This document shows positions 194 through 25,034 of a DNA stretch of 32,000 nt, one piece after another. A program made the translations under genes and the position numbers. The number at the start of each line of letters is the position of its first letter. Position 1 is the first letter of the stretch. The notes below the pieces were generated by a model, which was not told the DNA's origin, did not search any database, and saw only the letters and a program-made list of their open reading frames with translations. This stretch comes from Candidatus Electronema aureum (GTDB lineage: Bacteria > Desulfobacterota > Desulfobulbia > Desulfobulbales > Desulfobulbaceae): NCBI GenBank assembly GCA_004284765.1, contig NQJD01000004.1, positions 60,001-92,000 on the forward strand. The letters run 5' to 3'.

Positions 194-1219
194 TCACTTT
201 TCATCCTTCATTATTTTTCTCAGCTCATCAGCCAATACCTTTCCGGCGATATGATGTCCTTTTGACCCCCAATGCGCTTTATCAGCGGCTCTGACAACAA
301 CCCCCTCTTTTTCGCTCCGTTCAACCGCTTCAGAAACCATAGGCAAAGAAATAAATCCAGCTTTTTGGGTGACACGAATCCACGCCTCTTTTTCTTGAGA
401 GGTACTTGTGCTGCACGTAAATGTGAAGAGCTTTGTCTCTTTTGGCACAGAATCAGCCATCATTTTTAAAAGATTTTGCGTTATCCGTTCAGCTTCCGCA
501 GTATCTTTTATCGTTTTTTCTTTGTCGTTAAGCGATTGAGGGGGATAATATCCCTTATATATTTTAAACTGCATTTTTTGAACAGACAAATCAATGCCTC
601 TGAATAAATATGAATTTGCATATAAAAATCTATACACATCTGCATCTCGATACACGATCTTGTCGCCACCATAATATGGTCGAAGATTTTTTTGATTTCT
701 TACGATCATTTTTTCTTCAAGAATGAAGCTATTATTCGAAAAATCATTTGAACAAAACTGCAAGACGAAATAATCAGGACGTATTATATTGATGTATTTT
801 TTCGTGATGATCAACTCTTGGAGGGTTCCATATCCTCCCCCTCCAAAAGCAAAAATTTCTACGTCGAGATTTTTTTTAACCTGATCGTAATACGCATCTT
901 CGTCAGACATATTTGGATCACCTGTAAAAGAGTCTCCAATGAAAAATATTTTCTTCTTGTCAGTATCAATATTCCCCCATGATCTGAATCCATGCTGATC
1001 CGTTGAAAGGACTATATTATAATTAACCCCAGCTGCATCTGGTCTAACAACGCTGTAATGGGTGCTTTTCTTAGGAACCCAACCAACTTCTTGATCATAC
1101 TGATAGATACAACCTCTTGAAGCGTATCGGTAATACAGCTCTCCAAATGCAATTATTGTTAAAAAAGTCATAACTGGAATAGCTGCTAATACGATCCAGT
1201 ATATCTTTTTTCTTATCAT
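194..1219 (-). CDS. membrane-anchored SGNH/GDSL-type hydrolase (possible glycan O-acyl esterase or transferase)
   Basis: ATG start. N-terminal TM helix IYWIVLAAIPVMTFLTIIAFG. SGNH blocks are FFIGDSF (I), GGGGYG (II), CSNDF (III) and DKAH (V, DxxH). A hand-counted line is 28% GC, far below the neighbouring genes. Confidence 0.7.
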   Translation of the reverse strand: MIRKKIYWIVLAAIPVMTFLTIIAFGELYYRYASRGCIYQYDQEVGWVPKKSTHYSVVRPDAAGVNYNIVLSTDQHGFRSWGNIDTDKKKIFFIGDSFTGDPNMSDEDAYYDQVKKNLDVEIFAFGGGGYGTLQELIITKKYINIIRPDYFVLQFCSNDFSNNSFILEEKMIVRNQKNLRPYYGGDKIVYRDADVYRFLYANSYLFRGIDLSVQKMQFKIYKGYYPPQSLNDKEKTIKDTAEAERITQNLLKMMADSVPKETKLFTFTCSTSTSQEKEAWIRVTQKAGFISLPMVSEAVERSEKEGVVVRAADKAHWGSKGHHIAGKVLADELRKIMKDEK

Positions 1220-3115: not shown

Positions 3116-4069
3116 TTATCTTCGCGCCACAAGCGCATTTTCCAAGAACCATGAATACGTATCCGCTATACCATCCCGAAGAACGATTTGGCTTTTCCAG
3201 CCCAAGGCGGAAAGTTTCGATACATCGAGCAGCTTGCGGGGTGTGCCGTCTGGCATGGTAGTATTGTAGCGAAGTTCTCCTCTAAAGCCAACAGCTTCGC
3301 TAACCAAAGTAGCCAGATCAGCAATAGTGACTTCCTGCCCAGAACCGACATTGATAATTTCTGTACTACTGTAATGATCCATCAGAAAAAGACAGGCAGA
3401 GGCCAAATCATCAACATGAAGAAACTCCCGCTTCGGCGTACCAGTTCCCCAAATTTCCACCTCTGGCAGCTTGTTGATCTTCGCCTCGTGGAATTTTCTA
3501 ATCAATGCAGGCAGCACATGTGAGCTATGCAAATCAAAGTTGTCACCCGACCCGTAAAGATTAGTGGGCATCAGGCTGATGGCATCAAAGCCGTGTTGTT
3601 TGCGGTAGGCTTGGCACATTTTAATGCCCGCAATTTTGGCAATCGCATACCACTCGTTGGTCGGCTCCAGCGCACCACTGAGGAGATGTTCTTCCTTCAT
3701 CGGTTGGGGCGAAAATTTAGGATAAATACACGACGAACCGAGGAAAAGCAGCTTTTTTACCCTGTTGCGCCAAGCTGCGTCAATGATGTTGGTCTGAATC
3801 AGCAGATTGTCGCGGATGAAATCTGCTGGACTACTGTTGTTGGCGTGAATGCCGCCGACCTTGGCCGCCGCGAGAAAGACGAAATCAGGCCGAGCTTCGT
3901 CAAAAAAGCGGCGCACGGCAGCCTGATCGGTCAGATCCAGCTCGACGTGAGTGCGGGTGAGCAAATTTGTGCAGCCCGCCTGCGCCAGCGCACGGCAGAT
4001 CGCGCTGCCGACTAAACCGCGATGCCCGGCGACGTAAATGGATGAGGAAGGGGCCAGAGATAAAGCCAT
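3116..4069 (-). CDS. fcl: GDP-L-fucose synthase (GDP-4-keto-6-deoxymannose 3,5-epimerase/4-reductase)
   Basis: 317 aa [14 protein letters not shown] Rossmann motif, YAIAKIAG (YxxxK) and PTNLYG match Fcl/WcaG. No Shine-Dalgarno sequence is visible upstream of the ATG. Confidence 0.9.
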
Positions 4070-4201
4070 GCTGTTTTATTTTCAGAAAAGCTGCTGTAAA
4101 TTACTTAACCGCTTATTTCTTTCCTCGATTTTATCGAGAACTTCTTTGTTGGCAATTTCTTCGTCCAAGCTGAAAACGATAAAAATCTTGCCACAGTATT
4201 T

Positions 4202-4543
4202 TTATACCAATGGTGATGACACTTTGTTAAGCACTGGGAGATGCCCATGAAACATCTCGAATTGGTGCATCCATGTTCTCTCGATCTTTTCAAGAAGACA
4301 TTCTTCAGCTAACAAATAATTAAAGAAAGAAGGCCTGCCGTAAACTCCGCTTTCTGTTTTCTGTTTACTTTCAAGATGCTGGCAAAATCTATTTTTCAGA
4401 CACCTTGAAAGACCAATATACAATATTTCACCAGAGAAGTTCGTTATCGTATAACATCCAGAATTTTCTGGAATTTCAAATGATACTGAATAGGAAAAAA
4501 GCTTTTTTCTGTCAGGGTATGGCATCAACTGATTGTGCATCAT
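4202..4543 (-). CDS. small GIY-YIG domain nuclease
   Basis: 113 aa. GCYTI...GEILYIGLSRCLKNRFCQHL gives the GIY/YIG elements plus the conserved Arg. It is followed by LEKIERTW (Glu) and VLNK (Asn). The ATG overlaps the upstream DGQHR stop as ATGA. About 30% GC. Confidence 0.7.
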   Translation of the reverse strand: MMHNQLMPYPDRKKLFSYSVSFEIPENSGCYTITNFSGEILYIGLSRCLKNRFCQHLESKQKTESGVYGRPSFFNYLLAEECLLEKIERTWMHQFEMFHGHLPVLNKVSSPLV

Positions 4544-5673
4544 AATTCAATGTTTTTATTTAGACTTGATTTATGCATCGAGCTAGCCATTAACGCTGCA
4601 ATTTTATGCAATGCTCCAGAATTAAGATAACTTGCTTTCCCTTTACCGCCGCTATTCCACCACTCAGAATGACCTAACCCTGCATAATCTCCATCAAGAT
4701 TTTCAAAAGTATCTCTCAGGAGACTCTCCATTGTTGGCACTTTGAAATCGTTCATTTCATGCAACTTAGAAAAGAAAGGAACGGAGAATCGACAAAATAG
4801 CTGGATGCCATTATATTTAAACAATACTGTTGGCTCGTTAACATATAGTATGTTGGATATTGCCTTCCAATAATTAAGAAATATTTTCAAACTTTTCTCG
4901 ATCGGATAAATAGTTAGCGGATTATTGGCGACTAGAACAAACTGTTTTATCGTTCTTGCGAAACTCTTTTGATTGACACTTGCGCTTTTACTTTCTTTGT
5001 TAGCCATTTCGATTCTATCTCTCCAAGGAGAATCATCCTCCGAGTTAAGATAATCAATAAACTTTAAGGCGATATCATCTTCTCCTTTCTTCACAGCTCT
5101 TTCAATCCACTTCGGCAATGACGGGATATGTTCTACTTGCAATGCTTTTGTTAAACGCGCATAAATTCGCTGCTCAATAGCTTTGTCCACGCTCTTTTGA
5201 GTGGTATTGACGATCAAGAAATGACACATCTGCGATATTCTTGACAATCCAGTTGCTATATTTACAGGTATTTCAAAATCTAACACCTTTATTTCTTTTT
5301 GACTGGCCATTTTCAGACCTTCAATTCTATGCTGGCCATCAACTACAGAAAAAGGTCCGATAAAATTTATATCGAAAGAAATAGTGTTTGTTTTTATGTT
5401 AAAATCAATATCCTTGTCAGTTGCTATAAAAATACTTGTCGGAAGAAAAACATCTTGAGTTTTCATCCCTTCTATAATGTAGTCTGCAAGTTTCTTTGCA
5501 CGTGCCTTATTCAAGAGACGTTGATACCCCTGATCGCTATTATCATCTGGATCTAACGTTTCAACGCTGTAAAAATTAGGCTTTAGTAAATCTGAAACCT
5601 TTAACGAGGTAGTATATAACGTTAAATTTCCCTGTTTAACGACCGCAGCTGGCCTTGAAATCTTATTCTCCAT
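4540..5673 (-). CDS. DGQHR domain protein (DndB-like, ParB/Srx-fold)
   Basis: 377 aa. Literal VVDGQHRIEGL motif, preceded by QGYQRLLNKARAKKLADYI and followed by FLIVNTTQKSV, as in the DGQHR/DndB family. GGAG lies 8 nt upstream of the ATG. Hand-counted lines are 30-32% GC. Confidence 0.8.
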   Translation of the reverse strand: MENKISRPAAVVKQGNLTLYTTSLKVSDLLKPNFYSVETLDPDDNSDQGYQRLLNKARAKKLADYIIEGMKTQDVFLPTSIFIATDKDIDFNIKTNTISFDINFIGPFSVVDGQHRIEGLKMASQKEIKVLDFEIPVNIATGLSRISQMCHFLIVNTTQKSVDKAIEQRIYARLTKALQVEHIPSLPKWIERAVKKGEDDIALKFIDYLNSEDDSPWRDRIEMANKESKSASVNQKSFARTIKQFVLVANNPLTIYPIEKSLKIFLNYWKAISNILYVNEPTVLFKYNGIQLFCRFSVPFFSKLHEMNDFKVPTMESLLRDTFENLDGDYAGLGHSEWWNSGGKGKASYLNSGALHKIAALMASSMHKSSLNKNIEL

Positions 5674-5704
5674 TTTATTGCTCCGTTAGGTAGTTGGATA
5701 AAAA

Positions 5705-6790
5705 TCACTCAAAATAATTATACGCCCGATACCCCTTCTGCCGCACCACCTGATCTCGCTCCGCCAGCTTAAGGTCTTCAACGATCATCTCCCGCACCAT
5801 CTCCTCAAAGCTGATCTTCGGCTCCCAGCCGAGCTTTTCCTTGGCCTTGGAAGGATCACCGAGCAGGGTTTCAACCTCGGTCGGGCGGAAATAGCGGGGA
5901 TCAACCCGGACAATGGTTTTGCCGCTCTTGCGCTCAATGCCGATTTCCTCTAGCCCGCTGCCCTGCCAAACGATGTGCACCCCCAGCTCCTCGGCGGCGA
6001 TTTCGACAAATTCCCGTACTGAATGCTGCACACCTGTGGCGATGACAAAATCCTCTGCCTGTTCCTGCTGGAGCATCAGCCACTGCATCTTCACGTAATC
6101 CTTGGCATGGCCCCAGTCGCGCAACGAGTTGAGATTGCCGAGAAACAGAGCCTGTTGCAGCCCCAGTTTGATCCGAGCCAAGGCTCTGGTGATCTTACGG
6201 GTGACAAATGTCTCGCCTCGGACTGGCGACTCATGGTTGAAAAGAATACCGTTGCAGCAGTACATTTTATAGGCTTCACGGTAATTCACCGTGATCCAGT
6301 ACGAATAGAGCTTGGCGACCGCGTAGGGCGAGCGAGGATAAAACGGCGTGGTCTCGCGCTGAGGAATTTCTTGCACCTTGCCGAACAGCTCCGAGGTGGA
6401 AGCCTGATAGAAGCGCGTTTTACTTTCCAAACCAAGGATGCGGATGGCCTCCAGCAGGCGCAGGGTGCCGAGCGCGTCGCTGTTGGCGGTGTATTCCGGG
6501 GTTTCAAAGGACACCGCCACATGGCTCTGCGCGGCCAGATTATAGATTTCGTCTGGCTGCACTTCCTGAATGATTCTGATCAGATTAGTGGCATCGGTCA
6601 GATCGCCGTGATGGAGCTTAAAGCGAACATCCTGCTCGTGCGGGTCTTGGTAAAGATGATCCACCCGGTCGGTGTTAAAGAGCGAGGAACGACGCTTGAG
6701 GCCGTGCACCATGTACCCTTTTTCAAGCAGGAACTCAGCAAGATATGCGCCATCCTGACCGGTGACACCGGTGATCAAAGCTGTTTTCAT
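5705..6790 (-). CDS. gmd: GDP-mannose 4,6-dehydratase
   Basis: 361 aa. [36 protein letters not shown] and [10 protein letters not shown] are canonical Gmd motifs. Confidence 0.95.
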
Positions 6791-7749
6791 TTTTGAGTTC
6801 TGAGGAAATCATCAAAATAGGCAATGGTCGGCAGCAGCCCTTCCCGCAGGGAAATCTTCGGCTCCCAGCCGAGCTTTTCCTTGGCTAAGGTGATGTCAGG
6901 TCGCCGCTGGCGAGGGTCATCCTGCGGCAACGGCTTGAAGATCAACTCTGACTTCGAGCCGGTCAGTTCCAGTACGTTTTCCGCCAATTGCAGGATGGTG
7001 AACTCGCCCGGATTGCCCGTGTTGACTGGGCCGGTGAAATCATCTTCAGTGGCCATCAGGCGGATGAACGCCTCAATCAGGTCATCGACATAGCAGAAGG
7101 AGCGGGTCTGCGAGCCGTCGCCGTAGATGGTGATCGGCTCGCCGAGCAGAGCCTGAACGATGAAATTCGACACCACCCGCCCGTCGTTGGGGTGCATACG
7201 CGGCCCGTAGGTGTTGAAAATGCGGGCCACTTTGATCCGCAGCTTATGCTGGCGGTGGTAGTCGAAGAACAATGTCTCGGCGCAGCGTTTGCCCTCGTCA
7301 TAGCAGGAGCGGATACCATTGGGATTGACATGGCCCCAGTAGGATTCAGGTTGCGGATGTACCTGTGGATCGCCGTAAACTTCCGAAGTAGAAGCCTGGA
7401 AAATCTTCGCCTTCACTCGTTTAGCCAGCCCAAGCATGTTGATCGCCCCATGCACTGAGGTTTTGGTGGTCTGCACCGGGTCAAACTGGTAATGGATGGG
7501 CGAGGCTGGGCAGGCCAAATTGTAAATCTCATCCACCTCGATGTAGAGGGGGAAAGTTACATCGTGACGAATTAACTCAAAATAGGGATTGTCCAGCAAG
7601 CCGAGGATATTTTGCTTGGTGCCAGTGAAATAATTGTCTAAACAGATCACCTCATGACCATCAGTCAGCAGTCTTTCGCAAAGATGTGAGCCAAGAAAGC
7701 CAGCCCCGCCAGTGACTAAAATTCGTTTTTTCTGCTCCACAGATTTCAT
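6787..7749 (-). CDS. uxs: UDP-glucuronate decarboxylase (UDP-xylose synthase)
   Basis: [28 protein letters not shown] and YDEGKRCAE match the UXS family. I place the start at the ATG of MKSVEQKK (7749). The longer tracked ORF runs into the tRNA gene. The stop overlaps the gmd ATG as ATGA. Confidence 0.88.
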
Positions 7750-7806
7750 AAAAGATGTCCGATTAAAGCTGATGCAAGAAGGATGGAATGAACAAGAGGG
7801 ATGGGT

Positions 7807-7883
7807 TGGTGCGCCCGGCAGGATTTGAACCTGCGGCACCCAGATTAGGAATCTGGTGCTCTATCCACCTGAGCTACGGGCGC
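7807..7883 (-). tRNA. tRNA-Arg (anticodon CCT)
   Basis: Hand-folded cloverleaf. Acceptor GCGCCCG/CGGGCGC, anticodon stem CCAGA/TCTGG with loop TTCCTAA, T-arm GCAGG-TTCAAAT-CCTGC, encoded CCA. Confidence 0.95.
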
Positions 7884-7941
7884 GGCGACAGCTACTTGCC
7901 GATTTTACCTGAACGTCGGGCAAAAGCAAAGTTTTTCCGCA

Positions 7942-9222
7942 TCAGGCAGCGGAAAAGACCACGCCGTGCTGGCACTCTTCGAGCGGCGCGCTGCTGCGAC
8001 TGAAGCCCGGCTGAACGATGCAGTTGCGGCCGATCTTCATGCCTTCCGGTATCCGCGCCTCTTTGCCGAGCAGAGTGATGCCGCTGTACAGATGCGTCGG
8101 GAAATCCTTGTTGATAATCTTTTTGGCCTCAGCATCGCCGCAGCCCACAACCGCGCCGCAGCCGACGTGAATCCGCTTGTCCGCCACCACTAAGTCAACT
8201 TCAGCCCCGGCTTCTATCACTGAATCTTCGAGAATTACCGAATCGCGCACCGCTGCGCCTTTTCGCACGATCACGCCGGGCGAAAGAACGGAGTTGATCA
8301 CCGTGCCTTCGATCACGCAGCCAGCGGCGATCAGCGAGGAACGCACTGTGCAGCCAGCGGCAAAGCGGGCCGGAGCGCGGTCCATCATCCGCCGCTTGGT
8401 CTCGATGTTCGGCCTGATCCCCCATGCTTCCGGCGAGATGCCTGAATCCGGGCGGATGATGTCCATGTTCGCGTCCCAGTAGGCTTGAATGGTGCCGACA
8501 TCGCGCCAGTAGCCGTAGAAGGGATAGGCGAAGACCTGCCGTTCCTCAATCGCTTTCGGGATGATGTGCATCCCGAAATCAATCTCGCTGCGGTCGCGGG
8601 CGAGCATGGCGAGCAGGTATTCGGTGTCAAAGACATAAATGCCCATCGAGGCCAGATTGGTGCGGGCGACTTTCGGTTTCTCCTCCCAGTCAACAATCCG
8701 GTTGTCCTCGTCAACAATCCCGGCCCCGAACTGATGAATCTCGCTCATTGGCACGACCATCATGCCGATGGTGATGCCTGCCTTCTTGGCCCGATGGCAG
8801 GCGATCATATCGTTGAGATCCATCCGGTAAATATGGTCGCCGGAAAGGATGACCACCTGCTCGGAGGGATTGGCTTTGATGAAGTCAATGTTCTGCCGGA
8901 TAGCGTCCGCCGTGCCTTTGTACCAGTCGGAATCCTTCTCGCCAGTGCGCGGCGGCAGGATTTCCACGCCCCGGCTGCGGCCTGTGAAGTCCCACGCCTG
9001 GCCGCTGCCGATATGCCGCATCAGCGAGAGCGGCTTGTACTGGGTGAGCACGCCAACCCGGCTCAGACCAGCGTTCATCACATTGGACAGGGAAAAATCA
9101 ATGATCCGGTAGATGCCGCCAAAAGGCACTGCCGGTTTAGCCCGGTGGCCGACTAATATATTCAGGCGGCTGCCTATGCCGCCCGCCAGCAGCAGCACCA
9201 GCGCGTCGTTCACGTCTCTCAT
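7942..9222 (-). CDS. glgC: glucose-1-phosphate adenylyltransferase, catalytic-type paralogue
   Basis: 426 aa. LLAGGIGSRL...HRAKPAVPFGG, WYKGTADAI, ILSGDHIY and a C-terminal left-handed beta-helix region. Confidence 0.85.
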   Translation of the reverse strand: MRDVNDALVLLLAGGIGSRLNILVGHRAKPAVPFGGIYRIIDFSLSNVMNAGLSRVGVLTQYKPLSLMRHIGSGQAWDFTGRSRGVEILPPRTGEKDSDWYKGTADAIRQNIDFIKANPSEQVVILSGDHIYRMDLNDMIACHRAKKAGITIGMMVVPMSEIHQFGAGIVDEDNRIVDWEEKPKVARTNLASMGIYVFDTEYLLAMLARDRSEIDFGMHIIPKAIEERQVFAYPFYGYWRDVGTIQAYWDANMDIIRPDSGISPEAWGIRPNIETKRRMMDRAPARFAAGCTVRSSLIAAGCVIEGTVINSVLSPGVIVRKGAAVRDSVILEDSVIEAGAEVDLVVADKRIHVGCGAVVGCGDAEAKKIINKDFPTHLYSGITLLGKEARIPEGMKIGRNCIVQPGFSRSSAPLEECQHGVVFSAA

Positions 9223-14727: not shown

Positions 14728-17352
14728 ATGAACAGCAATGAACTGACCATCAGTAAACCGGTTTCCGTCTGGAACAAGAGCATCAGCCTTGAGCCAAAGA
14801 AGTTCCTGCAAGGCATTGGCAAGGCGGCGATAAAAGGCGCATCGCTTGACTGGAGCGGCGTTGGAGAAGCCGCCTTAGACACCATTGATGCTGCTGGCCT
14901 GCGCGATAAGCCAAATGAGCTTGCCTATTTGCTCATTTTTCGCTCGCTGGCCACTGCTCTTTCTGAGCTGGCGAAAGACTACGTTGACCTTTTCCGCAAT
15001 CCTCCGAAAGAGGAAGAGCTGGACAAGATTTCCGCCCGCTTTGCAGAGGAAATGGGCAAGGCGGAAGTATCCATCAGCCGCGAGTTCTTTGACCGGCCCG
15101 GCGAGCTGCCTTTGCTGAAGAATTTGCAAGGCCCGCTGGCCGCTTGGCTGCATGGCGTGGGTGCCAAGCAAACGGATGCGGAACAGATCGCCTGCCGCTT
15201 GCCGGATTATTTTGTCACCGCCCTGCATGAGACATGGCGGGCCGCGCCGCTGGACTACGCCGCCTTAACTCAGCATTTTGACACGCCGTTCACCAAGGCC
15301 ACGGAAGAAGCCCGGAGCTGGCGGCTCTATAATCAATGGCTGCAACGCCAAGTCAGCGACCGGATGTTTGCCGAAGCCTTTGGTGTGGAAAAGGTTTATG
15401 TGCCGCTGCGGGCGTATTACGAGGAAAAGGAGCGGGACGACGAGAGCAGCCAAGAGCTTGCGCCGCAGCGGGACAAAGTGAAACAGATTGTGGTGGATAT
15501 GGAGAGCGAGTTCCGCAACTGGCTGGACAACTTCGCTGCTGGCTCGGCAGTGCGCTTCATCAGCGGCGGGCCGGGTTCGGGAAAGTCCACCTTTGCCAAG
15601 ATATTCGCCGCCAAGATTGCCGCAGAAACCGACATCCCCTGCCTGTACATTCCCCTGCATCTCTTTGATGCCACGGACAACTTGATCACAGCAATGGAGA
15701 GCCATATCAGGAGCAACCGTTTCCTGTCCGGCAATCCGCTCGCTGCCAGAGACGGCAAAGACCGTCTGCTGATCATCTTTGACGGCTTGGACGAACTGGC
15801 TCTGCAAGGCAAGGCGGCCTCCGAAACAGCGAACAACTTTGTGGACGAAGTGCTGCGCCGCATTCAGGACGGCAACAGCCAAGGTCTGCACCGACAAGTC
15901 ATTATCACCGGGCGGACGATTGCCATTCAATCGGTGGCGGCAAAGCTGCGCGATGCCAAGCAGATCAGCCACGTGCTGCCGTATTTCATTGCGGAAGAGG
16001 AGCGCGAGGAATACCACGACCCAGACGGCCTGCTGATTGAAGATCAGCGGCAGCGATGGTGGCAGCAGTACGGCGACGCTGCGGGCAAAGGCTATGCGGG
16101 CCTGCCTGCGGACTTGGCGCGGCAGCATCTGGTTGAGATCACGGCCCAGCCGCTGCTCAATTACTTGGTTGCTCTCAGCTATGACCGCAAGACCATCACG
16201 TTCAGCGACGAGACCACGCTGAATCAAATCTATGCCGACCTTATCCGGGCGGTTTATTGCCGTCAGTATGAAAATGGTGGCCGGGTAAGTGCTTGTGCGG
16301 GCGGGCTGGATGAGAAAGACTTCATCCGGGTTTTGGAGGAAATCGCCTTAGCGGTTTGGCATGGGGACGGACGCACCGCCACGGTTGCCGGGATTCGGGA
16401 AAAACTCAAGGCGGGCGGCATTGAACGCTATTTGGAGCAGTTCCAAGAAGGGGCAAAAGCGGGCGTGACTCGTCTGCTCACCGCCTTTTACTTCCGGCAA
16501 AGCGATAACCGCCAAGACGGCGACCCGACCTTTGAATTCACCCATAAGAGCTTTGGCGAATACCTGACTGCCCTGCGCATTGTCCGCCTGTTGCGGCAGA
16601 TGGAGAAGCAGCGCAAGCGGCGGCAGGAAGACCCGGACGACGGCTGGTCGGAAAAGGTAGCCTTGCAGAAGTGGACTGCGTTTTGCGCCGTCAGGTGGAT
16701 GGATGATGACCTGCTGCGCTTTATCAGCAATGAGTTCCTCGCCATGATGCAAGAGGAGCTGCTCGCCTTGCAGGGCATGGTGCGGGAACTGCTCAGTTAC
16801 ACCATCAACCAGGGCCTGCCTTTTCCTGATGAGTTTTTGGGCAAAGGCTTCAAGGAGCATCTCCGTTTAGCCGAGAATACGGAAGGGGCATTGCTGGCCG
16901 TGCATTTTCACATTGCGGAGCTGACTAAAGAGGTCTCAAGGCTGACGCTGGAGGATGAATGGACCTTCGAGGAATGGTTCAGGCGAGCAAACGGGATGAG
17001 TCGGTATGCAGACAGGCTAGGGTACTTAGATTTATCCGACTATAATCTTTCAGGGCAGCTTTTTTATGATGCAAATTTTGTCATGTCTCGTCTTGAAGGC
17101 ACAGACTTGTTTTGTTCAATTCTTGCATGCGCAAACTTGCAAGGCGTGCAGCTTGAAAATGCGATTCTTTGTCGAGCCAATTTGCAAGATGCCAACCTTG
17201 CAGGAGCGAATCTCAAGGACGCAGACCTTAGTTATGCGAATTTGCGAAACGCAAACCTTGAAGGGGCGAATTTGGAGGGAGCGAATTTGGAGGGAGCGGA
17301 TTTAGAAGGTGCCATTCTCACAGGCACCATTTTGGAGAAGAAGGAGGCGTAA
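14728..17352 (+). CDS. STAND/NACHT-type P-loop NTPase with a C-terminal pentapeptide-repeat array
   Basis: 874 aa. Walker A GGPGSGKST (nt 15565-15591) and Walker B LLIIFDGLDE (nt 15766-15795). About 270 aa of helical N-terminal region, and a helical middle region after the NTPase core. The C-terminus (nt about 17043-17340) is A(N/D)LxG pentapeptides, ANLQDANLAGANLKDADLSYANLRNANLEGANLEGANLEGADLEGAIL. GGGAGGA lies 11 nt upstream of the ATG, inside the lptF/G 3' end. Confidence 0.85.
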   Translation: MNSNELTISKPVSVWNKSISLEPKKFLQGIGKAAIKGASLDWSGVGEAALDTIDAAGLRDKPNELAYLLIFRSLATALSELAKDYVDLFRNPPKEEELDKISARFAEEMGKAEVSISREFFDRPGELPLLKNLQGPLAAWLHGVGAKQTDAEQIACRLPDYFVTALHETWRAAPLDYAALTQHFDTPFTKATEEARSWRLYNQWLQRQVSDRMFAEAFGVEKVYVPLRAYYEEKERDDESSQELAPQRDKVKQIVVDMESEFRNWLDNFAAGSAVRFISGGPGSGKSTFAKIFAAKIAAETDIPCLYIPLHLFDATDNLITAMESHIRSNRFLSGNPLAARDGKDRLLIIFDGLDELALQGKAASETANNFVDEVLRRIQDGNSQGLHRQVIITGRTIAIQSVAAKLRDAKQISHVLPYFIAEEEREEYHDPDGLLIEDQRQRWWQQYGDAAGKGYAGLPADLARQHLVEITAQPLLNYLVALSYDRKTITFSDETTLNQIYADLIRAVYCRQYENGGRVSACAGGLDEKDFIRVLEEIALAVWHGDGRTATVAGIREKLKAGGIERYLEQFQEGAKAGVTRLLTAFYFRQSDNRQDGDPTFEFTHKSFGEYLTALRIVRLLRQMEKQRKRRQEDPDDGWSEKVALQKWTAFCAVRWMDDDLLRFISNEFLAMMQEELLALQGMVRELLSYTINQGLPFPDEFLGKGFKEHLRLAENTEGALLAVHFHIAELTKEVSRLTLEDEWTFEEWFRRANGMSRYADRLGYLDLSDYNLSGQLFYDANFVMSRLEGTDLFCSILACANLQGVQLENAILCRANLQDANLAGANLKDADLSYANLRNANLEGANLEGANLEGADLEGAILTGTILEKKEA
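17263..17307 (+). repeat. three tandem near-identical 15-nt units inside the pentapeptide coding region
   Basis: ggggcgaatttggag, ggagcgaatttggag and ggagcggatttagaa, encoding GANLE, GANLE and GADLE. Confidence 0.9.
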
Positions 17353-23648: not shown

Positions 23649-24437
23649 TTATAGCTTGTTCAACGCCGCATCCAAGGTCGCTTTAATCCGCTTTTTCTCA
23701 ATTTCAGGATCAACCTTCTGGAGGTACTCCACCGCTGCCAAGTCATCGCCACGTCTTCTGTTTTGGCGTGGCTCCAGAGCTTCAATCAGAATAGCTTCCA
23801 AAGCTGGAATCATATTCACCGCTTGGTAAATCTCAGGCAATGCGTCAATCTGCCCGTCACCAGAAATCGGCAACAAGCCGAACCACGAAAAACGGTCCCA
23901 GCGCACCGCCAGCCGGTCTTTAGTGTGTTCATACAGCCGTTTTCCCAGAGGTCGTTCCGTGCTTCTGCCAACATAAATTACTTCCCTGCCGTCATACAGC
24001 AAATAAATGCCAAGCTGCTTGCAGAAATCAACCGGCGTGGCTCCGATTTGCTGTATTCCGAGCAGTTTTGGCGTTGCATTCCATTCCACAGCATTCCTCT
24101 GCCAAAACATACCAAATGATGTGATGATTGTTTCGCGCTGTTCTTCTACCTCTTCCTGTTTAATGGCATCAGGTGCAATGTCGTGTACGTCTGAGATTGA
24201 CACACCTTTTTGCAAGGTGAAAATTCCTTTGTCAATACGAATATATGGTGAATTATCTCCATCATGCTTGATAGATGCAGATATTTGCGCACCTACTGTA
24301 GCCAACGGAGTGGCTCCAAGATTCTTTCTTAAGCCATCAGCGACAATCCTCTCTGTTATTTCTTTGTAATGCAGAGGAGTTTCTGACATAGATAATACTT
24401 TTACAATCGCTTTTTGCCACGTTAATTCTGATGCCAT
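23649..24437 (-). CDS. HARE-HTH domain plus GIY-YIG nuclease domain protein
   Basis: The N-terminus LTWQKAIVKVLSMSETPLHYKEITERIV...ATVGAQISASIK resembles the HARE-HTH/RpoE-delta N-domain. The C-terminus has GIYLLYDGREVIYVGRSTERPLGKRLYEH, then EAILIEALEP and QNRRRG, which are GIY-YIG core residues. I place the start at the ATG of MASELTW. The tracked start at 24464 is a TTG. Confidence 0.7.
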   Translation of the reverse strand: MASELTWQKAIVKVLSMSETPLHYKEITERIVADGLRKNLGATPLATVGAQISASIKHDGDNSPYIRIDKGIFTLQKGVSISDVHDIAPDAIKQEEVEEQRETIITSFGMFWQRNAVEWNATPKLLGIQQIGATPVDFCKQLGIYLLYDGREVIYVGRSTERPLGKRLYEHTKDRLAVRWDRFSWFGLLPISGDGQIDALPEIYQAVNMIPALEAILIEALEPRQNRRRGDDLAAVEYLQKVDPEIEKKRIKATLDAALNKL

Positions 24438-24956
24438 GACTTGCTCTTTAGTGTGATTTGTCAATTTGAAACTTGCCTTTGCCGCAGCTCAACCGTTCCA
24501 ACAAGTCTCCTTACTTACAACAACGGTTTGAGGTTGAAAAAAGTTCGGGCAGACATTCACTTTTTTTATTTTTTCTTTCCGAGAACACCTCATTGATAAT
24601 GAGGTGACCATTTTTTACTATTTTACCGCATAACTCTGCATCTCCACCACTGCCTCTGTCACCAAAGTCTCTACTGTTGGCCGCGCTTATACACGGTGTG
24701 TATTTTTCTGCAAGGCTATAACCTGAGAGCTGAATATGCAAGCAATTATTCATAGCATAGTTCTCTTGATTCCAACGTTAAGACCACAAGCTGAGTTACG
24801 TAGTTCAAAGTACAAAATGAACAATTCAACATACTCTTTTGGTGTATATATTCGAAAAAAACTGGAAAGGCTGTACTGGCTTGCCCGCTGTGATACGGCT
24901 GTAACACCTGAAGAACGGGTTAGCCGTAAATAGATAATGAATTTACTTGAGGTAGT

Positions 24957-25034
24957 TGGTCGGGGCGGCAGGATTCGAACCTGCGACCTCCTGCTCCCAA
25001 GGCAGGCGCGCTAACCAGGCTGCGCTACGCCCCG
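24957..25034 (-). tRNA. tRNA-Pro (anticodon TGG)
   Basis: Hand-folded. Acceptor CGGGGCG/CGCCCCG, anticodon stem CCTGC/GCAGG with loop CTTGGGA, T-arm GCAGG-TTCGAAT-CCTGC, encoded CCA. Confidence 0.95.

Follow-up and report, generated by a model that had tools for sequence, protein, structure and literature searches.

We analysed a window of 32,000 nucleotides (nt) from the cable bacterium Candidatus Electronema aureum (assembly GCA_004284765.1, contig NQJD01000004.1, positions 60,001-92,000 of the forward strand), in which a two-gene cassette encoding a DGQHR-domain protein together with a GIY-YIG nuclease separates gmd from fcl. All features of this locus lie on the minus strand, and positions refer to the window unless a relative is named. 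The order is gmd (GDP-mannose 4,6-dehydratase, 5705-6790; TIGR01472, 595 bits), a gene for a DGQHR-domain protein of 377 amino acids (aa; 4540-5673), a gene for a minimal GIY-YIG nuclease of 113 aa (4202-4543) and fcl (GDP-L-fucose synthase, 3116-4069; NF047922, 512.7 bits with a cut-off of 500). As a first-pass annotation of this DNA had stated, gmd and fcl are normally adjacent; in E. coli K-12 the gap between them is 2 nt. It had further described the two co-oriented genes as filling the entire gap. The orientation is correct, but an AT-rich spacer of 132 nt (4070-4201) remains between the nuclease gene and fcl.

The guanine-plus-cytosine (GC) content is 36.2% in the cassette and 34.1% in the spacer, as compared to 55.0% in gmd, 51.5% in fcl and 52.9% in the whole window. 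The cassette is therefore compositionally foreign to its Electronema host, and the contrast noticed at first sight is real, although the 30-32% GC counted by hand was too low. The DGQHR and nuclease genes share an ATGA start/stop overlap (4540-4543), which implies that their translation might be coupled. The stop codon of gmd and the ATG of the DGQHR gene are separated by 31 nt (5674-5704), exactly as first read, and this junction contains a GGAG Shine-Dalgarno sequence. Since a terminator scan of the 31 nt gave no match, the cassette is probably co-transcribed with gmd.

The 377-aa protein is a member of the DGQHR/DndB superfamily (TIGR03187, 111 bits with a cut-off of 58.85; Pfam DndB PF14072, 58 bits with a cut-off of 29.1). 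In contrast, it stays below the cut-offs of the equivalog models for DndB (TIGR03233, 23.5 versus 328 bits), DpdB (NF041060, 46.1 versus 300 bits) and DGQHR_dnd_1 (63 versus 450 bits). Because these scores are so far under the cut-offs, the protein cannot be counted among the conventional components of Dnd or Dpd systems, and the first-pass annotation was right to set it apart from Dnd-type systems. One could still assume that the pair has been displaced from a Dnd, Dpd or Ssp system encoded elsewhere in the genome and is an accessory to it, with the DGQHR protein regulating or assisting and the GIY-YIG protein acting as the restriction arm. The membership in the superfamily speaks for this, as do the best PADLOC-DB matches of the DGQHR protein, which are to DpdB (E 9e-12) and DndB (E 2e-7) and are weak, and the occasional occurrence of URI/GIY-YIG nucleases in dnd neighbourhoods (PMC10853773). 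Besides the equivalog scores, however, the gene contexts argue against it: no dnd, ssp or dpd gene is found in the 32-kb window, as had been noticed before, neither these genes nor a TGT-like neighbour recur within 5-8 kb of the loci examined in other genomes, and the cassette is transferred alone (see below). We therefore give the displaced part very little credit.

An alignment of 81 sequences revealed that the DGQHR protein is conserved over its full length and that three motifs are invariant, namely Q51-R52, D112-G-Q-H-R116 and F152..N156..Q159; these are the QR, DGQHR and F..N..Q motifs that had been picked out by eye from the single protein. A first AlphaFold2 model from a shallow alignment was mediocre (pLDDT 73, pTM 0.48) and was superseded by a model from a deeper alignment (pLDDT 86, pTM 0.80), in which an N-terminal alpha/beta domain is followed by a C-terminal domain made up of helices only. 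In Foldseek searches against the PDB, the only matches were nucleotide-binding domains of the ParB family, that is Noc (7ol9, probability 0.99), the N-terminal domain of pNOB8 ParB (5k5d, probability 0.98) and PadC, with modest E-values of 3e-3 to 1e-1. Among predicted viral structures, the matches were DndB-like proteins, DUF262 or 'GmrSD N-terminal domain' proteins, fusions of ParB and HNH domains, and AIPR proteins. According to the model, the N-terminal domain (approximately residues 1-160) adopts the nucleotide-binding fold of ParB/Srx proteins. When the whole protein was searched by sequence and by profile against all PDB chains, no match was obtained, and neither these searches nor Foldseek against the PDB found a solved relative of the helical C-terminal domain. 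Makarova et al. (2013) proposed an HEPN-like motif for DndB. The DGQHR protein differs in this respect, as inspection of the conserved columns of its alignment by eye revealed no conserved HEPN-like R-x4-6-H motif.

The 113-aa protein matches the GIY-YIG family only with residues 28-63 (PF01541, 25.4 bits with a gathering cut-off of 22.6). The full catalytic set is present in its sequence: G29-C30-Y31, Y42-x-G44, R52, H56, K62, E88-R89, W91 and N106 are each at least 97% conserved in the 81 sequences, and this set includes the Tyr, Tyr-x-Gly, Arg, Glu and Asn core that had been recognised initially. The catalytic domain is preceded by a conserved extension of about 25 residues (L6, P8, F16), and the protein has no further domain. 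Its mean identity among homologs is 48%, as opposed to 64% for the DGQHR protein. The homing endonuclease model TIGR01453 scores 21.1 bits against a cut-off of 56.05, the PADLOC HEase model matches weakly (E 0.036), and in sequence and profile searches of all PDB chains the only match was a marginal one to the UvrC N-terminal domain.

The two genes form a pair far beyond Electronema. Relatives of the DGQHR protein with 55-81% identity occur in Bacteroidota, Acidobacteriota, Elusimicrobiota, Planctomycetota, Nitrospirota, Alpha-, Beta- and Gammaproteobacteria, Melainabacteria, Paceibacteria, Spirochaetia and Lachnospiraceae as well as in one Methanoperedens archaeon. A peptide-pattern scan of 185,579 species genomes resulted in 146 confirmed matches, a number which is a lower bound since the patterns were derived from this one protein. 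A homolog of the nuclease (about 112 aa) is encoded directly downstream of the DGQHR gene in 167 out of 167 loci with enough downstream sequence, including all 85 loci fetched first and all 76 metagenomic loci with room for it. The recurrent partnership with a GIY-YIG gene of this size, which had been put forward for verification by a neighbourhood survey, is thus a general property of the group. A 4-nt overlap is the norm, being found in most of 80 genome loci, and all-against-all clustering of 1,087 flanking open reading frames (ORFs) revealed no third recurrent gene, so that the description as a self-contained two-gene unit is well founded. Moreover, the two genes are inherited together, as the pairwise distances calculated for one protein vary with those for the other (r = 0.76, Mantel p = 0.001). 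The metagenome scan returned only the main family (47-80% identity); more distant relatives were reached by a profile search and three context look-ups. They constitute a sister clade which has only 33-48% identity but the same partner, sometimes in the order DGQHR-DGQHR-GIY-YIG. Two such tandems of DGQHR paralogs with a single GIY-YIG gene are located next to priA (L168, 4815-7493; L171, 6001-8694).

The distribution of the pair is patchy. The Electronema copies are most similar to those of low-GC hosts of the Bacteroidota type (67-68%) and less so to those of other Desulfobacterota and Proteobacteria (57-60%). Cultivated carriers include Sediminibacterium ginsengisoli, Flavobacterium restrictum, Nitrosospira, Mesorhizobium and Sinorhizobium, in the latter case on plasmids. 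Public records give the pair no more than generic annotations, for instance on five RefSeq megaplasmids as 'DGQHR domain-containing protein' followed by 'GIY-YIG nuclease family protein'. Two peculiarities of the records should be mentioned. In high-GC hosts (P0130-P0138; L086, 8590-10131) the DGQHR protein is often called with 100-200 additional N-terminal residues (476-583 aa in total), which is probably an over-extension of the start codon and not an extra domain. A further record is labelled Leptospira interrogans (L084), a species with a GC content of about 35%, but the flanks of the pair have 59-60% GC; the contig is probably a contamination of that assembly.

The first-pass annotation had suggested comparing the gmd-fcl junction among close relatives and had assumed an insertion. 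In all three other Electronema-like genomes compared (L003/L013, L005 and L006) the same two genes are present at this junction. The flanking genes are 84-96% identical at the amino acid level (gmd 94-96%, fcl 86-89%), the DGQHR protein of the window shares 78-79% and its nuclease 69-79% identity with the counterparts, and the 31-nt junction between gmd and the DGQHR gene is conserved in L003, L005 and L006. Both genes are under purifying selection: the ratio of nonsynonymous to synonymous divergence (dN/dS) is 0.06-0.12 for the DGQHR gene and 0.12-0.22 for the GIY-YIG gene, at a synonymous divergence (dS) of 0.9-2.1. Given that the relatives share the site and that purifying selection acts on the two genes, the insertion must be old and maintained, and the idea of a recent event has to be abandoned. 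The GC content at third codon positions is 0.26-0.36 in the cassette versus 0.68-0.75 in gmd, which indicates that no amelioration towards the host composition took place.

The relatives also explain the spacer. L005 has four extra genes between the nuclease gene and fcl (7486-9145), encoding an RE_MjaI-like protein of 130 aa, a protein of 202 aa with a D...EAK motif, a DUF4160 protein and a protein of 126 aa. Only the RE_MjaI-like gene is retained in L003 (7492-7884) and only the 202-aa gene in L006 (9587-10195). The Pfam family RE_MjaI matches the islet gene of L005, and the gene is intact in both L003 and L005. The D...EAK motif of the 202-aa protein in L005 and L006 resembles that of PD-(D/E)xK nucleases. 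In the window, positions 4097-4201 correspond to the last 35 codons of the MjaI-like protein (tblastn, 65.7% identity over 35 aa, E 1e-9) and are colinear with positions 7775-7909 of L003 (blastn). Judged from these alignments, the 132-nt spacer in front of fcl is what is left of a deleted RE_MjaI-like gene. This remnant and the extra genes in the relatives demonstrate that a small islet has been reduced furthest in the window, where nothing of it but the DGQHR-GIY-YIG pair was kept. A promoter-like sequence (TTGCCA-16-TAAAAT, 10 of 12 consensus matches) is located inside the remnant at 4128-4155, with 59 nt between it and the fcl ATG. As a match from a consensus scan only, it may be a putative internal promoter for fcl. 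The lack of a Shine-Dalgarno sequence in front of fcl, from which a loss caused by the cassette had been deduced, is indeed observed, but it is common to the window, L003 and L005, where the start is readable, whatever lies upstream. The proposed loss is therefore rejected. Downstream of fcl, L003 and L005 have genes for an ABC transporter (Wzm/Wzt) and for methyltransferases, whereas the window has genes for a carbamoyltransferase and, downstream of it, a GDSL-like acylhydrolase (194-1219, minus strand), the latter being AT-rich as well (GC 0.33-0.39). Because the relatives differ downstream of fcl and the region 194-1219 is also AT-rich, the cassette can be placed in a variable polysaccharide region.

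In general, the pair is horizontally mobile. The cassette has on average 11 percentage points less GC than its flanks, and in 66 of 83 loci the deficit exceeds 5 points. Six pairs of loci (L054/L091, L091/L096, L011/L012, L037/L103, L135/L138 and L086/L087) show 86-98% nucleotide identity that is limited to the cassette: the identity ends 20-60 nt upstream of the DGQHR ATG, 3-40 nt past the nuclease stop codon, or at both sides, and beyond these points the flanks are unrelated, also when compared as proteins. The mobile unit therefore consists of the two genes plus approximately 60-70 nt of their own upstream region. In four loci (L054, L091, L092 and L096) a conserved upstream leader of about 70 nt moves along with the cassette; a TTCGAT element occurs in it repeatedly, and AGGAAA is its ribosome-binding site. 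This leader is absent from the 31-nt Electronema junction; elsewhere it may be a putative promoter/operator for autoregulation. In 143 loci, neither terminal inverted or direct repeats nor target-site duplications were found above the level of shuffled controls, integrases and relaxases adjoin the cassette in only a few loci, and no family member was detected in 50,697 phage records, the only match being a DGQHR protein of 28% identity in a Pf phage.

These observations bear on the second proposal of the first-pass annotation, a selfish homing-like cassette, in which the DGQHR protein would direct the GIY-YIG nuclease to cut DNA without the cassette, and the cassette would be copied into the break during repair. 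Such a pair would persist by spreading and not by protecting its host. Near-identical cassettes in differing contexts, with breakpoints 20-60 nt before and 3-40 nt after the ORFs, are what one would expect of such an element, and most loci do not have a linked recombinase. The position exactly between two conserved genes that normally abut would fit as well, and GIY-YIG is a known homing-endonuclease fold, though the HEase and TIGR01453 matches are weak and under threshold. On the other hand, no flanking gene recurs among the 80 genome loci and consequently there is no common target site, the phage records contain no family member, and the repeats and target-site duplications do not exceed the shuffled expectation. 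The 113-aa nuclease moreover has none of the DNA-binding domains known from enzymes of the Seg or I-TevI type and reaches just 21 of the 56 bits demanded by TIGR01453. Fixed homing genes normally decay. Both cassette genes, in contrast, are intact and under strong purifying selection at the fixed Electronema site, despite a saturating synonymous divergence (dS of about 1-2). The homing proposal is thus weak and we regard it as improbable. It is somewhat easier to imagine, but still quite unlikely in our opinion, that the pair represents an overlooked, widespread and minimal class of restriction system, in which a switch with a ParB fold and bound NTP licenses a bare GIY-YIG active site, and that it is at the same time its own mobile element. 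The cassette of 1.5 kb would then move among unrelated intergenic sites without a recombinase, perhaps by means of breaks made by its own nuclease, and would serve immunity and its own spread alike.

A minority of loci shows defence or mobilome genes close to the pair. When 140 immediate neighbours were classified, the only Pfam families to occur repeatedly were SNF2/ResIII, the Type I R-subunit, SMC_N, AAA_15/AAA_21, DinB_2, Metallophos, integrases and relaxases. PADLOC matches on individual neighbours comprise a Type I restriction endonuclease, DrmA, Type IIG, a Type III methyltransferase, AbiEii, PD-T4-6, AriA and mad2/3, and two copies on Sinorhizobium plasmids are found beside genes for PD-(D/E)xK, UvrD, WYL, exonuclease and helicase proteins. 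The suggested search for defence islands was therefore only partly successful: such neighbours exist, but most neighbours are housekeeping genes.

The nuclease could also be thought of as an enzyme of DNA repair or maintenance, similar to the incision enzymes UvrC-N or Slx1, with the DGQHR protein as a ParB-like loader and without any role in conflict. Its best sequence matches are UvrC N-terminal domains, some copies adjoin PriA, RecG or DnaA, and the conservation of the proteins is very high. However, a maintenance function is hard to reconcile with the patchy distribution (the 146 confirmed matches in 185,579 species genomes, again as a lower bound), with horizontal transfer and foreign base composition, or with the presence of the pair on conjugative megaplasmids beside nuclease and helicase genes. 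A repair enzyme is accordingly the explanation to which we attach hardly any probability.

A toxin-antitoxin or abortive-infection pair has to be considered more seriously. The GIY-YIG protein would be the toxin, the DGQHR protein its neutraliser and autoregulator, on the precedent of DndB as an ATP-modulated repressor that binds DNA, and a phage or the loss of the cassette would free the nuclease to act on the cell's own DNA. The layout, in which two genes overlap by 4 nt and the downstream one encodes about 110 aa, is that of a classic addiction module, and the solitary copies among housekeeping genes, the tight boundaries of the mobile unit and the patchy, horizontal distribution are in line with it. 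The Electronema islet also included a small gene pair of the DUF4160 type, and two reports describe DndB as a transcriptional regulator (PMC4507180; PMC10853773). Yet the product of the upstream gene is large, with 377 aa, and its conservation exceeds that of the supposed toxin (64% versus 48%), which is usually the reverse in type II systems, and no PADLOC model for toxin-antitoxin or Abi systems matches either protein. Since the nucleoside triphosphate (NTP) motifs and the entire C-terminal domain of the DGQHR protein are invariant, it resembles an enzyme or a switch rather than a simple neutraliser. For these reasons, we consider a toxin-antitoxin pair rather unlikely.

The reading that we favour, with about even confidence, is that the cassette is a widespread, horizontally mobile module for a two-subunit, nucleotide-dependent DNA endonuclease, most likely directed on its own against foreign DNA. 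The DGQHR protein, with its predicted ParB/Srx NTP-binding domain and its family-specific helical domain, would bind DNA and a nucleotide and thereby serve as the recognition or switch subunit. The GIY-YIG protein, in which the active site is complete while a DNA-binding domain is missing, would be the catalytic subunit, recruited into a complex or licensed by its DGQHR partner, and the ATGA overlap might ensure that both subunits are made in a fixed proportion. As no methyltransferase or modification gene ever accompanies the pair, the discrimination between self and non-self would have to lie in the recognition by the DGQHR protein. The target might be a feature of foreign DNA, for example a base or backbone modification; the missing modification enzyme and the very conserved recognition subunit make such a chemical feature the most economical assumption. 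The module would then work as a Type IV-like restriction enzyme, similar to a split GmrS/GmrD with GIY-YIG in place of HNH. In Electronema it reached the gmd-fcl junction prior to the divergence of the sampled species, within an islet of nuclease-like and toxin-antitoxin-like genes; it is probably transcribed with the sugar operon and is the sole part of the islet surviving in this genome.

Several precedents are consistent with these roles. DpdB, a protein of the DGQHR family, is an ATPase required for the action of DpdA on DNA (PMC10164549), a DndB-like protein binds ATP and GTP (bioRxiv 10.1101/2025.10.10.680097), and two publications attribute to DndB a DNA binding that is under the control of ATP (PMC4507180; PMC10853773). 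The DUF262 domain of GmrS is a DGQHR-related ParB/Srx module that acts with an HNH nuclease in modification-dependent restriction, GmrS and GmrD being separable genes (PMC4619093). A GIY-YIG domain is the effector of SNIPE, a validated defence nuclease (bioRxiv 10.1101/2025.11.03.685801). The immunity module of a ParB-like sensor and a nuclease effector, which was the first proposal for this locus, therefore holds as far as the two-gene unit is concerned, while we can only infer its immune function.

Some observations weigh against a role in defence or against the analogy with GmrSD. Pfam DUF262 (PF03235) does not match the DGQHR protein at E ≤ 0.01 and the motif is DGQHR, not DGQQR; because of the missing profile match, the GmrSD analogy draws on fold and literature and not on family membership. 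With a mean identity of 64% across phyla, the DGQHR protein is unusually conserved for the product of a defence gene. Most immediate neighbours, and also those at positions -2 and +2, are metabolic or housekeeping genes, and many copies, including the one in the window, stand alone among metabolic genes. As judged from counts, the association with defence and mobilome genes is real, but it is weak and concerns a minority of loci. Finally, no description of the DGQHR and GIY-YIG pair as a system was found in the literature searched, and PADLOC-DB v2.0.0 has no model for it, the only matches being the weak ones to DpdB, DndB and HEase.

If the favoured reading is true, the pair would be a compact and very widespread addition to the immunity systems that combine a ParB-like NTPase with a nuclease, which so far comprise GmrSD, BrxU and SspE. 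The new member would differ from these in its nuclease fold and in its split subunits, and a large orphan branch of DGQHR/DndB-like proteins would gain a partner and a testable job outside of Dnd and Dpd systems. The module is easy to clone and to test, since it spans just 1.5 kb, is strongly conserved and is present in cultivated strains. The tight boundaries of transfer without a mobility gene and the lack of GC drift in Electronema over a long divergence could both bear on the question of how small defence genes spread. For the genome of the cable bacterium, the result is mainly a matter of annotation: the gmd-fcl junction would host a decaying defence islet in a variable polysaccharide locus.

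There are three further features of interest in the window. The plus-strand gene at 14728-17352 encodes an 874-aa STAND NTPase of the NLR/Avs-like type with an N-terminal helical NNH3 domain, a NACHT domain and C-terminal pentapeptide repeats, which could be another conflict gene. A 271-aa HARE-HTH protein is encoded on the minus strand (23649-24464), bordering on a second patch of AT-rich DNA (GC 0.39-0.44, approximately 24000-25000); HARE-HTH domains have been linked to the recognition of modified DNA in the literature. Furthermore, the 3' ends of gmd and of the UXS-like SDR gene upstream of it (5817-5835 and 6857-6875) share about 32 nt coding for 11 residues. A stretch of 29 nt (stem and tail) is identical, and a terminator-like hairpin was flagged there on the opposite strand. 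This may be the result of gene conversion between the paralogous SDR genes.

A comparison with known systems helps to define what is special about the pair. There are validated anti-phage proteins in which GIY-YIG serves as the effector that cuts DNA (bioRxiv 10.1101/2025.11.03.685801; 10.1101/2024.10.26.620412), and the 113-aa protein shares this fold with SNIPE/PD-lambda-1, PD-T4-3, Uzume and Type II enzymes like R.Eco29kI. However, these are single polypeptides with their own targeting domains, and no PADLOC model for them matches the 113-aa protein. Free-standing homing endonucleases like Seg and I-TevI have the catalytic fold and residues as well as the location between conserved genes in common with it. 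They differ from the nuclease described here, which has no DNA-binding domain, scores below the TIGR01453 cut-off, has no common target, is always accompanied by the 377-aa partner and was not found in phages or introns.

On the side of the DGQHR protein, DndB, the regulator of the dnd phosphorothioation operon, belongs to the same superfamily (PF14072, TIGR03187), and DndB-like proteins bind ATP, GTP and DNA. Unlike DndB, the protein from the window scores 23.5 bits where the DndB cut-off is 328 bits, is not linked to dndCDE in the loci examined and is always coupled to a GIY-YIG nuclease. In the DpdB-DpdA system of 7-deazaguanine modification, an ATPase of the DGQHR family is the obligatory partner of an enzyme acting on DNA (PMC10164549), and this is the best precedent for a DGQHR protein that licenses such a partner. 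The differences are that the partner here is a nuclease and not a transglycosylase, that the DpdB model gives only 46 of the 300 bits required and that no dpd genes are nearby.

The pair probably comes closest in its mode of action to the GmrSD-type enzymes GmrSD, BrxU and SspE, which combine a DUF262 ParB-like NTPase with a DUF1524 HNH nuclease for Type IV modification-dependent restriction. Like these, it can consist of two separate genes (as GmrS and GmrD), has no cognate methyltransferase and is mobile and sporadic (PMC4619093), and the predicted structure of the DGQHR protein matches several 'GmrSD N-terminal domain' models. In contrast to GmrSD, the nuclease of the pair is of the GIY-YIG and not of the HNH/DUF1524 type, and its NTPase matches DndB/DGQHR models instead of DUF262 and carries a helical C-terminal domain without a solved relative. 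Since the nuclease fold differs and the DUF262 profile does not match, the pair is not a member of the GmrSD family itself.

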